From an uncultured delta proteobacterium (lineage in GTDB: Bacteria; Desulfobacterota; RBG-13-43-22), in the NCBI GenBank assembly GCA_963716045.1, contig CAVQSS010000006.1, positions 1,743 through 65,742 on the forward strand: 64,000 nucleotides of DNA, in the 5' to 3' direction. Below the pieces are notes generated by a model. The model did no database searches, was not told the DNA's origin, and saw nothing but the letters and a program-made list of their open reading frames with translations. Position 1 is the stretch's first letter; every line of letters starts with the position of its first letter. Both the position numbers and the translations under genes were made by a program. Shown here one piece after another: positions 309 through 53,484 of the stretch.

Positions 309-1655
309 ATGTCATTCGCCAATCCGGCTCATATAGTTAGACGCCACTCCGTAGTCGGCGAGGAAAATGAATGGGTCAAGATGTTTGACCCGCCCAGGGC
401 CAGTCCCTTTACGCCCGAACTGCTTTTGCCGACCAACCCGGTCCCGGAGGTGATGGCCGCCGCCGGCCTTCAAAGCGTCACCACGCCTCACACCGTCCAG
501 AGGGACCTGCTTAACAGGCTCATCCTCCCCACCTGGGACAACAGGGCGAATGGACTGGAATTCATGACCTTCAGGGATGGGGACAACCCTTCCCTTGACG
601 GCAACTATCCCGGGGGCACCATCCGCATCCCCCGGGGAGCGGTCTTCCATTGCTTTACCAACGGCAAAGGGCCGCCTCCGCATACCATCCACTGGCACGG
701 CCATGAGCCCACGCCCATGAACGACGGGGTGGGACACTGCTCCATGGAGCTGGGGAGCTACACCTACCAGTTGCAGCCCAACTTCATCGGCACCTATTTT
801 CACCACTGCCACCGGAACACCGTGCAGCATTTCGAGTTCGGGCTCTTCGGATTGACGATCATCGATCCGCCCGACGCCTATTTTGCCACTCAAAATTCTG
901 GCGTTCCTATCGGAAGAGGCAACCCGGAACCGGGATTCTCTAACGGGAGGTTCCGGTGCGCGGCCAACGTCTCACAGTTCCCCCAGTTCCTCCCGGGGTT
1001 CAACTCTAACCCCCTTGAATCGGGGGACCCCCATGCCTTTACGGTCCCCTACAACGTGGAGGCCATCTGGGTACTGAGCGCCCGAGACTCACGCTGGAAC
1101 GACCTGGCGGCGGACGCCAGGGCGACCTTCCCCACACACGGCACCATTCCCGGCGTCAACGATCGATTCCAAGAAAACGCCGGCCTAAACGGTTTCTTTG
1201 CCTTTAATGACTACCACGCCGATTACTGGTTTGTCACCGGCGTCCCGGTGCCCGCTCCCTTAGGGGGGAGAGCGAGCATCCCCCAGGGTGTAACCATCCC
1301 CGCGGCCCTGAACAGCGGCGTTTCCGGGACCCAGGTCTCCGTCAACGCCCAGGTGGGCCAGACCATCCTCCTCCGCTGCGTAAATGCCGCCTATAATACG
1401 ATCCGGGTCACCCTCCCGGTGGACGCGGTGATCACGGCCTGGGACGGCCGGGCACTGGGCATTCCCCCCCTGCAACAGTACAACCGGGCCTATCTGGTGC
1501 CGGCCAATACCCCCCAAACCTTCGTCACCGCCCGGCGTTTTGAGGCCCTGATCCGGCCGACTGAAGAACAGAACAGACCCGCCATAGTGGAATTCCTGGA
1601 CACCCGGGGCGGTAATTTACTGATGACCACCGAGATCCCCTTCAGAATCAATTAG
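309..1655 (+). CDS. multicopper oxidase family protein
   Basis: 448-aa ORF with AAGGAGAAAG upstream of the ATG. Motifs HTIHWHGHEP (HxHG type) and YFHHCHRNTVQH (HCH type) match copper-ligand motifs of cupredoxin/MCO proteins. Confidence 0.6.
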   Translation: MSFANPAHIVRRHSVVGEENEWVKMFDPPRASPFTPELLLPTNPVPEVMAAAGLQSVTTPHTVQRDLLNRLILPTWDNRANGLEFMTFRDGDNPSLDGNYPGGTIRIPRGAVFHCFTNGKGPPPHTIHWHGHEPTPMNDGVGHCSMELGSYTYQLQPNFIGTYFHHCHRNTVQHFEFGLFGLTIIDPPDAYFATQNSGVPIGRGNPEPGFSNGRFRCAANVSQFPQFLPGFNSNPLESGDPHAFTVPYNVEAIWVLSARDSRWNDLAADARATFPTHGTIPGVNDRFQENAGLNGFFAFNDYHADYWFVTGVPVPAPLGGRASIPQGVTIPAALNSGVSGTQVSVNAQVGQTILLRCVNAAYNTIRVTLPVDAVITAWDGRALGIPPLQQYNRAYLVPANTPQTFVTARRFEALIRPTEEQNRPAIVEFLDTRGGNLLMTTEIPFRIN

Positions 1656-2824: not shown

Positions 2825-2857
2825 TTGACATTCCACCATGATCATTTAAATTATAAT
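2825..2857 (+). promoter_or_regulatory. sigma70-like promoter for the small peptide gene
   Basis: TTGACA at 2825-2830. Candidate -10 boxes are TAAATT (2847-2852, 16-nt spacer) or TATAAT (2852-2857, 21-nt spacer, too long). The exact -10 is ambiguous. Confidence 0.45.
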
Positions 2858-2894
2858 AAAATAACCATCGCATGAAGCGAGAAAGGAGCCGGTC

Positions 2895-2957
2895 ATGAAG
2901 ATCCGCAAGGTAGTCAAGGTATCCAAAGGTCTTTGCAAGTGTAAAAAGACCTGCTAA
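2895..2957 (+). CDS. 20-aa Lys/Cys-rich peptide (MKIRKVVKVSKGLCKCKKTC), candidate RiPP precursor
   Basis: ATG preceded by GAAAGGAG with a 6-nt spacer, with a promoter upstream and a terminator immediately downstream. It lies upstream of a radical SAM/SPASM gene. It is too short to appear in the ORF track. Confidence 0.4.
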   Translation: MKIRKVVKVSKGLCKCKKTC

Positions 2958-2983
2958 GGGCTAAAATTATTATCTTTCAGAAA

Positions 2984-3014
2984 AAGGCCGATAGGAGATC
3001 TGTCGGCCTTTTTT
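2984..3014 (+). terminator. rho-independent terminator after the peptide gene
   Basis: 8-bp stem AAGGCCGA / TCGGCCTT with an 11-nt loop, followed by T6 (3009-3014). Confidence 0.65.
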
Positions 3015-3023
3015 CTTATTCAA

Positions 3024-3406
3024 ATGCCCACCACCATGACTCCAAAACGGATTTCCAAGATTATATCTGCCGGCCCTTCTGCGATTATTTCAAGCCAGGA
3101 AACAAGGAAGAACTGCTCTGCCGGGGCGCTCTGGTCGTCGAAAAACTGGTCCGACGGCAGCGTCTTACCCCGGAGAACTTCCGGGGCCTGGATGAAAAGG
3201 AACCGCTGATCCCCCGTCAGGAAACCGATTTGGAGGACGCCGTCTGCGCGGGCTGTCCCTTCCGGGCCGAGGACTGTGATTTCCAGTCCCCCCACCCGCC
3301 TGCCGACTGCCGGCCCTGCGGGGGACTGGTTCTCCTGCACCGGCTTAAAAAACAAGGTTTGATATCGATTCCGGAGTTAGTTGATTTATTCCATGGCGGC
3401 CAATGA
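3024..3406 (+). CDS. Cys-rich hypothetical protein (about 127 aa after repairing a 1-nt indel in the A-run at 3044-3047)
   Basis: Frame 2 is open from 2945 to TGA 3404-3406. It reads TDFQDYICRPFCDYFKPGNKEELLCRGALVVEKL...CAGCPFRAEDCDFQSPHPPADCRPCGGLVLLHRLKKQG, and looks coding but has no in-frame start. ATG 3024 or 3036 lies in frame 3, and one extra A in the run AAAA joins the two frames. The stop overlaps the ATG at 3393 of the rSAM gene. The listed antisense ORF 3020-3355 is its shadow. Confidence 0.45.
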
Positions 3407-4577
3407 CTGGAAAGAGGCTTTTCTGAGCCTTCACCCGCAGGTTTTCCTGAAACGTCTCGAACAGCCCTTTCTCTATCATGTCGGGAGGGATGAATTGTTC
3501 GAAATCGACGAAAAGGCCCTGGAATTCTTAAGCCGGTGCGACGGGACGCGCCGGGGGGCGGAGCTGACCTCCGATGACGACTTTGTATTTTTTTGCCTGG
3601 AGGAAGGGCTGTTGGAAACCTACCCCCAACCGACCCTTAAGACCATTTCCATCGGGGAAGCCCCTTTCCCTTCTCTGCGTTACCTGGAACTGCAACTGCT
3701 TCATCAATGCAATCTGCGCTGCCGCCATTGCTACCTGGGTCCCCCCCGCCCCGGGCGGTTATCCTTGGAGGAGGCCGTCGGCATCACCCGGGAATTTGCC
3801 GCGCGAGGAGGCTTGCGGCTTCTGGTTTCCGGAGGCGAGCCCCTGCTGTATCCCGAACTGCCCGCCTTCCTCGCCCAGACCCAGGGCCTGGGCATCCGTC
3901 GTATCCTGTTAACCAACGGGACCCTGATCACCTCGGAAAACGCCCGTTCCCTTCAGGTGGAAGAGGTGCAGGTCAGCCTGGACGGCTGGCGCACGGGTCA
4001 CGAGGCCATCCGGGGCGTTGGGACCTTTGATCAAACCCTGGCGGGTATCCAGGCCATCCGGGAAGCCGGACTGCCCCTCTCCATCGCCACCATGGTTCAC
4101 CGGAAGAACCTGGATGAATTCGAACCACTGGCCCGTCTGGTGAAAGAAATCGGGGCTATTGATTGGGGGGTGGATCTGCCTTGCCTGGCAGGCTCTTTGC
4201 TGGAACATTCCGATTTGCTGGTTCCTTACGAAGAGGCCGTTCCCTTTTTGAGCTTTTCCTTTGGGGGAGGCTATCATGGCTCCTCGGAGGGGTATGCCTG
4301 TGGACGCCATTTACTGACGGTGTTACCCAACGGGCAGGCGGTCAAGTGCGGCTTTTATGAAGATCAGCCCCTGGGGGATGCCCGCCAGGGCCTGATCGAA
4401 TGTTGGCTGAAGCTTCACCATGTCCCCCTGGAAAAACTGGAATGCCGGGGGTGTCCCGCCCTCGAGGAATGCGCCGGAGGCTGCCGCTACCGGGCCGTTC
4501 AGCCCTTCGGCCGCGACCCACTGATGTGCGCCCTGTATGGGCAGACGAAGGAAAATTTGCCGGAGGGATATCACTGA
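3381..4577 (+). CDS. radical SAM/SPASM domain protein with N-terminal PqqD-like (RRE) extension; putative peptide maturase
   Basis: CNLRCRHCY (CX3CX2C) and a glycine-rich LLVSGGEPLL motif. The C-terminal Cys cluster CGRH..C..CRGCPALEECAGGCRY is SPASM-type. The N-terminal ~90 aa (YHVGRDELFEIDEKALEFLSRCDGTRRGAEL) looks PqqD-like. Start is TTG 3381 or ATG 3393. Confidence 0.85.
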   Translation: MIYSMAANDWKEAFLSLHPQVFLKRLEQPFLYHVGRDELFEIDEKALEFLSRCDGTRRGAELTSDDDFVFFCLEEGLLETYPQPTLKTISIGEAPFPSLRYLELQLLHQCNLRCRHCYLGPPRPGRLSLEEAVGITREFAARGGLRLLVSGGEPLLYPELPAFLAQTQGLGIRRILLTNGTLITSENARSLQVEEVQVSLDGWRTGHEAIRGVGTFDQTLAGIQAIREAGLPLSIATMVHRKNLDEFEPLARLVKEIGAIDWGVDLPCLAGSLLEHSDLLVPYEEAVPFLSFSFGGGYHGSSEGYACGRHLLTVLPNGQAVKCGFYEDQPLGDARQGLIECWLKLHHVPLEKLECRGCPALEECAGGCRYRAVQPFGRDPLMCALYGQTKENLPEGYH

Positions 4578-4584
4578 CAGGTTT

Positions 4585-4679
4585 AAATTCGAATTCCGAA
4601 GTTCGAAATTCGAAACAAATTCAAATGTATTTTGAAAATTTGTGCTTGTTTCGGATTTCGTGCTTCGAATTTCGGATTT
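4585..4679. repeat. family D hairpin (AAATTCGAA / TTTCGGATTT tandem-unit arms)
   Basis: 34-nt arms (4585-4618 and 4646-4679) pair at 31/34 positions, counting 3 G-U pairs on the plus-strand RNA. The loop is 27 nt. Related units occur at 1733-1760, 18484-18530, 37430-37462 and 42040-42106. Confidence 0.75.
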
Positions 4680-4702
4680 AGGCATTACAAAGGAGGTCTA
4701 TA

Positions 4703-8479: not shown

Positions 8480-8791
8480 AACACGAAAACAAAAGGCGTT
8501 TCTGGTTGCTGGTTTAAGGGAACGATAATGGATAACAGCCGAGTTTACGGTCTTTCGTAGGGGAGGGGCCTTCGGCGAGCCCTTCGACAAGCTTAGGGCC
8601 TTGAGTTTACCGAAAGGCTCAGGCGAGCCGTTAATCCCCTCCCGCCCCTCCCCCAACCACAGCCGGGCGGGTATAAAACCCGCCCCTACGAAAAACGCCA
8701 AATAGTCGAACATTGAACATCGAACGCCCAACATCGAATGAAAAACAAACGCTCATTGAACGTTCGATGTTGGAAGTTCGATGTTCGACGT
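8480..8791. repeat. repeat-filled convergent intergenic region, including a family C hairpin at 8705-8789
   Basis: Contains a TTGCTGGTT unit (8494-8516), a GGGGAGGGG...CCCCTCCC inverted segment, a GCGGGTATAAAACCCGC hairpin and the GTCGAACATTGAACATCGAACGCCCAAC hairpin. ORFs 8189-8734 and 8738-9022 are artefacts. Confidence 0.7.
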
Positions 8792-44293: not shown

Positions 44294-44634
44294 TAATTAG
44301 TAATTAAGAATTGACTATTGATTATTGGCCCCGGTGCCGGTTAAGGAGGCCATTTTCGCACTAAACCCCCCATGCCCCAGGGGGGGCACACCAACGCATG
44401 AAACTATCCGGCATACTGGTCATTGCGAGAAAGAGAAGCGACGAAGCAATCCCCCAGTTAGATTACAACGCTCCCCAAGCTCATCGGGGGATTGCTTCGC
44501 TTCGCTCGCAATGACGGGAGGGGGCGGCCACCCCAAATGAACGTCGAACATTGAACATCGAACGCCCAACTCCGAATGAAAAACAACCCTCCATTAAACA
44601 TTCGATGTTGGAAGTTCGATGTTCGACGTTCCTA
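44294..44634. repeat. composite repeat region
   Basis: Contents: family A (44294-44327), a diverged GGCC..GGTGCC...ACTAAACCCC...GCATGAAA module (44326-44412), the inverted repeat CATTGCGAG...GGGGATTGCTTCG...CTCGCAATGAC (44420-44515) and a family C hairpin (44543-44627). Confidence 0.7.
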
Positions 44635-53410: not shown

Positions 53411-53484
53411 ATTGAACATCGAACATCGAACGCCCAACCTCGAATAGGGGAAAAATAATTAATAATTAATTGTTAATTATTAAC
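53411..53484. repeat. partial family C unit (53411-53447) plus family A repeat (53455-53484)
   Basis: attgaacatcgaacatcgaacgcccaacctcgaat followed by taattaataattaattgttaattattaac. Confidence 0.7.

Follow-up and report, generated by a model that had tools for sequence, protein, structure and literature searches.

The 64,000-nucleotide stretch analysed here (the window; positions 1,743 to 65,742 of contig CAVQSS010000006.1, from an uncultured delta proteobacterium of the Desulfobacterota) carries on its forward strand a 63-nt open reading frame (ORF) encoding the 20-residue peptide MKIRKVVKVSKGLCKCKKTC, followed by a gene for a Cys-rich protein and a gene for a radical S-adenosylmethionine (rSAM) enzyme with a C-terminal SPASM domain (Table 1). 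An earlier sequence-only reading had proposed these genes as a candidate cassette for a peptide that is made by ribosomes and modified after translation (RiPP). Comparison with related loci supports this interpretation overall. The peptide gene adjoins a gene of the same rSAM family in about 100 of 124 loci (window excluded, among the matches listed), and it does so in two gene orders, a conserved co-location of the kind looked for in a RiPP precursor and its maturase. The tests that the sequence-only reading had put forward, namely synteny of the peptide gene, grouping of the enzyme and models of a RiPP recognition element (RRE), came out mostly in its favour, with one failure, the sequence-level match to an RRE of the PqqD type.

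The peptide gene and its linkage to the enzyme gene

The metagenome collection was scanned with the DNA pattern ATG-N30-GGN YTN TGY AAR TGY AAR-N6-TGY-stop, for which about 0.25 chance matches are expected by our own information-content estimate, and the pattern was found at a minimum of 120 loci. The window contains it once, against 0.00 occurrences expected from 100 shuffles. Locus counts given below refer to the matches listed, together with loci that were retrieved through their proteins (protein-first loci). Among the matches listed, 129 peptide genes encode 88 distinct 20-residue peptides. At the positions that the pattern leaves free, I3 and K5 are invariant across these 88 peptides and residue 8 is always K or R, while residue 6 is V or I, and residue 19 S or T, in 86 of the 88 each. 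The underlying codons vary: I3 is encoded by ATC, ATT or ATA, K5 by AAG (54) or AAA (52), and the genes end in TAA, TGA or TAG. Four loci retrieved through the enzyme (90, 73 and 63% identical to that of the window, and 46% for a metagenome-assembled genome (MAG) of the Nitrospinae) each have a 20-codon ORF at the equivalent place, encoding MKIRKVVKVSKGLCKCKKTC, MKIRKVVKLSKGLCKCKKTC, MQIRKVKRAARGLCKCKKTC and MKIKKVEKVSKGLCKCKSSC, and the DNA of these genes differs chiefly at synonymous positions. A scan of genome contigs with the window rSAM enzyme as query gave two loci, one of which is the Nitrospinae locus L001, and every one of the protein-first loci (L001, L003-5, L126-128 and L130-132) has the peptide gene. 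Three of these (L130, L131 and L132), retrieved independently of the pattern through divergent Cys-rich-rSAM fusion proteins, carry GLCKCKxSC, as do the Nitrospinae locus (46% identity) and L003-5. Because the pattern-free residues are nearly invariant while their codons vary synonymously, the 63-nt ORF, which is read directly from the DNA as the sequence-only reading had given it, is by comparative sequence evidence a real gene under purifying selection at the amino-acid level. The possibility of a chance ORF is rejected on the comparative data. The peptide belongs to no Pfam or NCBIfam family, and tandem copies of its gene occur at four loci (L025, L036, L044 and L074).

The loci with an adjoining enzyme gene can be divided into two main types: (i) in type A, the arrangement of the window, the order is peptide gene, Cys-rich gene, rSAM gene (58 of 124 loci); (ii) in type B, the rSAM gene comes first (32 of 124 loci), and the ATG of the peptide gene lies 1-2 nt 3′ of the rSAM stop codon. 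At eight further loci of the 124 the peptide gene and the Cys-rich gene are followed by the end of the contig, and at two the peptide gene directly precedes the rSAM gene. Some 9-14 of the 124 loci gave no match to the enzyme gene despite enough room, and the remaining loci are too short for judgement. The linkage persists at enzyme identities as low as 41-46%, including the Nitrospinae MAG, so that the synteny with orthologous rSAM genes on which the sequence-only reading had staked its proposal was indeed found.

Table 1. Positions of the features of the peptide-rSAM locus in the window, and of the downstream gene of type B loci
Feature	Position	Strand	Remarks
Sigma-70-like promoter	2825..2852	+	TTGACA 2825-2830, 16-nt spacer, TAAATT 2847-2852
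Shine-Dalgarno sequence GAAAGGAG	2881..2888	+	6 nt 5′ of the peptide ATG; visible in the sequence itself
Peptide gene, 20 aa, MKIRKVVKVSKGLCKCKKTC	2895..2957	+	precursor-like; 63-nt ORF
Intrinsic-terminator-like hairpin and T6	2980..3014	+	stem core GGCCGATAG/CTGTCGGCC; between peptide gene and downstream genes
Cys-rich accessory gene	3036..3406	+	~122 aa in homologs; conserved frame ~3041-3406, not in phase with its ATG
rSAM N-terminal domain, residues 1-95	3393..3677	+	acidic; predicted RRE-like winged-helix topology
Radical SAM core	3678..4298	+	CX3CX2C at 3708-3731 (CNLRCRHC; C106, C110, C113)
SPASM domain and C-terminal tail	4299..4577	+	Cys residues C303, C319, C351, C354, C360, C364, C379
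~303-aa ATP-grasp-like gene	L026 10661-11572; L088 4300-5211; L123 2676-3587		3′ of the peptide gene in type B

The expression signals that had been described around the short ORF, a TTGACA box with an AT-rich -10 region, a Shine-Dalgarno sequence close to the ATG and a terminator-like hairpin after the stop, were all recovered. The promoter matches the sigma-70 consensus at 10 of 12 positions in a promoter scan, and the distance of its TTGACA from the peptide gene is kept in L003, L004 and L005, the last of which has TTGACA-16-TATAAT. An exact TTGACA lies at -100 to -36 in 24 of 65 type A loci, in none of the control regions and in none of 29 type B loci. The gene upstream (2373-2663) is on the opposite strand, and the promoter region of the peptide gene is therefore the start of a transcription unit. 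Of 106 distinct peptide genes, 89 have a GGAG, GAGG or AGGA motif upstream. The hairpin has a folding energy of -22.3 kcal/mol (z -4.56), and none of 200 shuffles was as stable; it is absent from the output of a simple terminator scan. Its GGCCGA..TCGGCC stem is present in L003, L004, L005 and L126, with a seventh pair that varies between T.G, C-G and T-A, and 44 of 68 distinct type A loci have a hairpin with a T-run after the peptide gene. The layout with a leaky terminator between precursor and maturase, regarded as common by the sequence-only reading, thus holds for many type A loci but is not universal, since the peptide gene directly follows the rSAM gene in type B. A search with Rfam at gathering thresholds gave zero matches in the whole 64-kb window, so the region of the short ORF is not a known RNA element.

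The rSAM/SPASM enzyme and its Cys-rich partner

The rSAM enzyme has 394 residues when read from the ATG at 3393, a start that overlaps the stop of the Cys-rich gene by 14 nt. All close homologs are also 394 residues long and align over their full length, and the 398-residue version with a TTG start at 3381 has accordingly been replaced. The enzyme belongs to the radical SAM superfamily (PF04055, 77.4 bits against a cutoff of 29.5) and has a SPASM domain at residues 303-370 (TIGR04085, 34.2 bits against 27); Pfam PF13186 gave no match at E<=1. Both the CX3CX2C motif and the seven Cys of the C-terminal SPASM cluster, already recognized in the sequence-only reading, are invariant in 56 homologs; the seven Cys follow the SPASM pattern C-x9-15-G-x4-C ... 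C-x2-C-x5-C-x3-C ... C. No NCBIfam equivalog model comes near its cutoff, the best being AhbD (95.5 bits against 500), NirJ2 (86.1 against 500), ScmE, StsB (78 against 625), PqqE (66.9 against 381) and MftC (64.8 against 265). NirJ (72.4 against 515) and AlbA (49 against 850) also remain below, and the SCIFF maturase model TIGR03974 gave 9.5 bits against 425 for the SPASM region and did not figure in the top matches of the whole protein. These scores place the enzyme neither in the haem pathway nor among the PqqE and MftC cofactor maturases or the SCIFF maturases.

The nearest PDB sequences are SkfB (E 3.5e-21), BlsE, PqqE, CteB and SuiB, among which BlsE, a cytosylglucuronate decarboxylase, is a non-peptide enzyme. 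The AlphaFold2 (AF2) model of the enzyme (mean predicted local distance difference test, pLDDT, 87; predicted template-modelling score, pTM, 0.86) has SuiB as its best PDB fold (E 2e-14, template-modelling score 0.66, 452 aligned columns), followed by SkfB, TigE, viperin, PqqE, BlsE and anSME. A grouping with non-peptide enzymes, named beforehand as a result that would speak against a peptide maturase, was not observed: AhbD and NirJ are far below their cutoffs, and the best full-length folds are the peptide maturases SuiB, SkfB and TigE. The family is large: a search with the window enzyme gave 3540 clusters at E<=1e-5, and one with a type B enzyme gave 2824 at E<=1e-30. Its named sources are Syntrophales, Syntrophaceae, Desulfobacterales, Thermodesulfobacteriota and other Deltaproteobacteria MAGs, and Nitrospinae, and its entries are annotated as "radical SAM protein", one homolog being labelled 'AdoMet-dependent heme synthase' by IMG.

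The N-terminal 95 residues of the AF2 model (pLDDT ~76-96) are predicted to form strands at residues 10-13, 17-21, 25-29 and 34-37 and helices at 40-47, 55-58 and 62-70, which is compatible with a winged-helix fold of three strands and three helices. Only the RRE-bearing SuiB and TigE align with the model over ~450-460 columns, as against 331-366 for PqqE, anSME and SkfB, which suggests that the predicted N-terminal domain occupies the place of their recognition domain. The resemblance to PqqD-type RREs claimed earlier may therefore hold for the predicted topology, given the span of these alignments, but it fails at the level of sequence models: PF05402 (PqqD) gave no match at E<=1 to the window domain and matched one of 20 diverse N-terminal domains (E=0.26), and a profile of the domain found no credible RRE match among PDB sequences, Pfam or NCBIfam. 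The label RRE-like is used here for a predicted topology combined with the full-length SuiB alignment. The mean net charge of the domain is -6.1 in 20 diverse members, versus +6.9 for the peptides.

The Cys-rich gene of the window does not have the form first given to it, a single ORF of ~127 residues. The span 3024-3406 is 383 nt long, the ATG codons at 3024 and 3036 share frame 0, which stops at 3209, and the Cys-rich frame that ends with the TGA at 3404-3406 has no ATG, GTG or TTG before 3230. The closest homologs begin with ATG ACG TCC AAA (L126-128) or ATG CCC AAA ACG (L003), and the window reads ATG AC- TCC AAA ACG. By this alignment one base is missing in the window near 3041, right after the ATG at 3036, which could be either an assembly error or a real frameshift. 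Homologs of the protein are 119-123 aa long, begin with MTSK or MPK and share seven conserved Cys (C11, C15, C28, C70, C73, C80 and C94) as well as DCDF and PCGG motifs. The protein matches no Pfam or NCBIfam family, a Foldseek search of the PDB with its predicted model (pLDDT 77) gave nothing below E=4, and on these comparisons it is an orphan family, a putative partner domain without known relative. A profile search against 1.84 billion representatives (50% cluster library) gave 242 members, most of them 110-130 aa long, and the same library contains Cys-rich-rSAM fusions of 497-506 aa and one Cys-rich-cupin fusion (P0256). In the metagenome loci the Cys-rich domain is fused in frame to the N-terminus of the rSAM enzyme in 19 cases (17 distinct peptides) and separate in 38, a pattern which argues that the protein acts as an enzyme subunit. 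One further protein, P0223 (474 aa), carries the Cys-rich domain C-terminal to response-regulator, PAS and HisKA_3 domains; this may be a genuine fusion to a sensor or else the result of two gene calls merged into one.

Neighbouring genes and other features

The genes around the peptide-rSAM pair differ between the two types. In all 20 type B loci with room, the peptide gene is followed by a gene of ~303 codons whose product weakly resembles YheC/D-type ATP-grasp enzymes (E 6e-4). Next in type B come genes for a 94-aa membrane protein and then for an ATP-binding cassette (ABC) ATPase and an FtsX-type permease. These neighbours hint at C-terminal or side-chain ligation plus export in that subtype. 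A small Cupin_2-like gene, in many cases encoding a poly-His tail, lies 3′ of the rSAM gene in 20 of the 37 type A loci that have space for it; the tails contain up to nine His (L131 3997-4356; L130 3160-3489; L086, +1865 to +2212 relative to the peptide gene). Together with the Cys-rich-cupin fusion, the poly-His cupins point to metal binding. In the window, no cupin gene was found downstream of the rSAM gene. At three Nitrospinae-type loci (L125, at -1419 to -34 relative to the peptide gene, L107 and L001), a second rSAM gene, for an AhbD/NirJ-like protein of 455-461 aa, immediately precedes the peptide gene in the same orientation. Its product may act as a second tailoring enzyme or may belong to the haem pathway and be an unrelated neighbour. 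Conserved at a minimum are the peptide and the rSAM/SPASM enzyme; the Cys-rich domain, the cupin, the ATP-grasp-like protein and, sometimes, a second rSAM/SPASM enzyme are lineage-specific accessories, which is how RiPP systems are built. Stand-alone peptide genes in other contexts indicate that the peptide gene can be unlinked from the enzyme gene. Two of them (L021 at ~2441 and L065 at ~4566) lie between a TetR-like gene and a short-chain dehydrogenase/reductase (SDR) gene; they adjoin hypA, hypB and hypF and a [NiFe]-hydrogenase large-subunit gene and are rSAM-free for several kb.

Several other features were seen in the window. An ORF for a multicopper-oxidase-like protein of 448 aa (309-1655, forward strand) lies upstream of the peptide gene; its homolog in L003 (1-2698) matches Cu-oxidase_3, and two such genes are consecutive there. 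The divergent intergenic region 5′ of the peptide promoter contains a GC-rich hairpin at 2737-2764 (TAAGGGCGGCC / GGCCGCCCCTA, 6-nt loop). A dispersed intergenic repeat, GGGCGTTCGATGTTCGA, which resembles repetitive extragenic palindromic (REP) elements, has seven matches with up to three mismatches against 0.28 expected (2672-2688, 8713-8729(-), 8758-8788, 44551-44567(-), 44610-44626 and 53419-53435(-)), one of them just 5′ of the peptide promoter. Between the rSAM stop and an NmrA-like gene, an imperfect inverted repeat of 43 nt with TTCGAA-type units (4584-4680; 79% complementary) may represent a long terminator or one more repeat element.

Proposed function and relation to known systems

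We consider it likely that the locus is a three-gene peptide-modification cassette of the RiPP type, and we infer that the 20-residue peptide is the substrate of the rSAM enzyme. The promoter at 2825 would drive a short, abundant transcript encoding the peptide, with partial readthrough of the hairpin into the Cys-rich and rSAM/SPASM genes. The peptide's basic N-terminal half, M-K-I-[KR]-K-[VI]-x-[KR], would be a recognition sequence that docks on the acidic RRE-like domain, and the invariant C-terminal half, G-L-C-K-C-K-x-[ST]-C, would be the core that enters the active site. There, the 5′-deoxyadenosyl radical would abstract a hydrogen, and the peptide would become cross-linked intramolecularly at one or more places, most likely through Cys-sulfur-to-carbon thioethers as in sactipeptides and ranthipeptides, a comparison based on the three invariant Cys of the peptide and the SPASM clusters of the enzyme; these auxiliary clusters would handle the electron. 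The Cys-rich protein may be a metal or iron-sulfur (Fe-S) accessory domain that supplies the enzyme with electrons or presents it with the peptide. The peptide-rSAM system has no conserved protease or exporter alongside it. Because of this, and of the conservation of the whole peptide across phyla, the product is probably a full-length, intracellular peptide with a physiological role, as has been proposed for SCIFF, rather than a fast-evolving bacteriocin.

Several observations weigh against this interpretation. Around 10% of the peptide genes have no rSAM gene within several kb, so that the peptide could also function independently. In the window the Cys-rich gene is frameshifted, and its absence from the rSAM-first order, in all 32 type B loci, means that the core reaction can do without its product. 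For K15 and K17, conservation can be judged in the protein-first loci only, as the pattern fixed both residues. Finally, the chemistry and the role are read here from genes and predicted models, and the docking mode, given the failure of the PqqD and RRE sequence models, from the predicted fold only.

The same genes could be read in other ways. The peptide might act unmodified, as a metal, sulfur or electron carrier that binds metal or an Fe-S cluster through its CxCxxxC motif and works with the rSAM enzyme, the Cys-rich domain and the cupin on another substrate. Such a role would suit its three invariant Cys, the seven conserved Cys of the partner domain, the small cupins, often with poly-His tails, after the rSAM gene in more than half of the type A loci with room, and the stand-alone genes beside hyp and [NiFe]-hydrogenase genes; a precedent is Dph3, a small Cys-rich electron donor to the radical SAM enzyme Dph1-Dph2. 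However, three Cys are insufficient to hold a cluster alone, the invariant basic half of the peptide and the acidic RRE-like domain suit the recognition of a leader, tandem copies and a terminator between peptide gene and enzyme gene are typical of RiPP precursors, and several peptide maturases are among the closest folds, which makes a carrier role rather unlikely. Less probable still is that the enzyme really acts on the ~122-aa Cys-rich protein, in the way that QhpD acts on QhpC, and that the 20-mer has a different role. The position of the Cys-rich gene directly 5′ of the rSAM gene, the overlap of stop and start and the conserved Cys would fit, but fusion to the N-terminus of the enzyme in 19 loci is unusual for a substrate, the domain also occurs fused to a cupin, and in all 32 loci with the rSAM gene first the Cys-rich gene is absent and the peptide gene present.

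A strong terminator hairpin within 22 nt of the ORF and 5′ of the enzyme genes, a layout shared by 44 of the 68 type A loci, is also what would be expected if the ORF were a regulatory leader, the translation of which controls the downstream terminator (attenuation) and the product of which has no function. This reading is rejected on the comparative data and retains a very small probability: all 20 residues are conserved at the amino-acid level while the codons drift, the ORF lies 3′ of the rSAM gene in 32 loci, stand-alone and tandem copies occur, and no alternative anti-terminator pairing was seen. Just as improbable is an rSAM enzyme that does not act on peptides, either a haem enzyme of the AhbD/NirJ type or an anaerobic sulfatase maturase, with an incidental ORF beside it. 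AhbD and NirJ2 are the best NCBIfam matches, one homolog bears the IMG label of a heme synthase, and an AhbD-like rSAM gene lies 5′ of the peptide gene in L125, L107 and L001; yet the scores are far under cutoffs of 500-650 and cover core residues 102-263 only, the enzyme is linked to the peptide in about 100 loci, and no sulfatase or haem genes are conserved beside it. All of these readings are less likely than a RiPP-type cassette because the peptide is universal and the accessories are variable, because the peptide sits either 5′ or 3′ of the enzyme, and because its amino-acid sequence is under selection.

If the locus is a RiPP-type cassette, a more specific and tentative possibility, which we hold to be conceivable rather than probable, is that the modified 20-mer is a conserved physiological peptide-derived cofactor or metallopeptide of anaerobic Desulfobacterota and Nitrospinota, analogous to pyrroloquinoline quinone (PQQ) or mycofactocin and made by a dedicated rSAM enzyme with a hitherto undescribed seven-Cys metal domain and, in many lineages, a poly-His cupin. 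Modification of short peptides by rSAM enzymes has yielded both cofactors, such as PQQ and mycofactocin, and whole classes of natural products. The precursor described here is at the lower limit of size, and the enzyme family is thousands strong in anaerobes of sediment and groundwater. A test of the system would be expected to reveal a cross-link chemistry not seen before or else a further conserved small molecule of anaerobic metabolism. Annotation would gain as well, with thousands of entries now called 'radical SAM protein' or 'hypothetical protein' and a 63-nt gene that goes uncalled, and the system is small enough for direct testing with a synthetic 20-mer and one or two proteins.

A close parallel in biology is SCIFF with its maturase CteB (Tte1186; TIGR03973/TIGR03974), of the ranthipeptides. 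Both systems combine a strongly conserved ribosomal peptide, short and rich in Cys, with an rSAM/SPASM enzyme, both are spread through a whole group of anaerobes without a conserved protease or exporter, and CteB is among the PDB sequence matches of the window enzyme. However, the peptide described here has 20 residues and three Cys in a C-terminal CxCxxxC motif, against ~45 residues and six Cys in SCIFF; it occurs in Desulfobacterota/Thermodesulfobacteriota and Nitrospinae MAGs, whereas SCIFF is found in Clostridia; and it is accompanied by an orphan Cys-rich partner domain and an enzyme that scores 9.5 bits against the cutoff of 425 of the SCIFF maturase model. SuiB/StrB, which cross-links Lys to Trp in streptide, shares the order of recognition domain, rSAM core and SPASM domain and is the best full-length structural match, and its precursor SuiA is also very short (~22 aa). 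Sequence identity to SuiB is nevertheless 15-17%, the recognition domain is undetectable by sequence in the window enzyme, and the Lys-Trp chemistry is impossible here because the window peptide has no Trp. The sactisynthases SkfB and AlbA likewise act on Cys that form thioethers, and SkfB ranks first among the PDB sequences and second among the fold families; it has a twitch domain, in contrast to the full seven-Cys SPASM domain of the window enzyme, and the StsB and AlbA models stay far below their cutoffs. PqqA/PqqE/PqqD and MftA/MftC/MftB resemble the present system in their very short precursor that crosses phyla, in the combination of an rSAM/SPASM enzyme with a peptide-binding domain and in their housekeeping-like distribution, but the window peptide has neither a Glu/Tyr nor a Val-Tyr motif, the downstream tailoring genes of these pathways are absent, and PqqE and MftC score below their cutoffs.

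The family is absent from NCBIfam 20.0 and Pfam, and searches of the accessible literature, including one for the motif GLCKCK, found no description of it; it may figure as an unnamed cluster in large surveys of rSAM RiPPs. An rSAM/SPASM enzyme with a short Cys-containing precursor is thus a known kind of system, of which this family is a member that no curated model covers. What distinguishes it from the known systems is a 20-residue precursor conserved nearly residue by residue across phyla, an orphan partner with seven Cys and a recurrent poly-His cupin.

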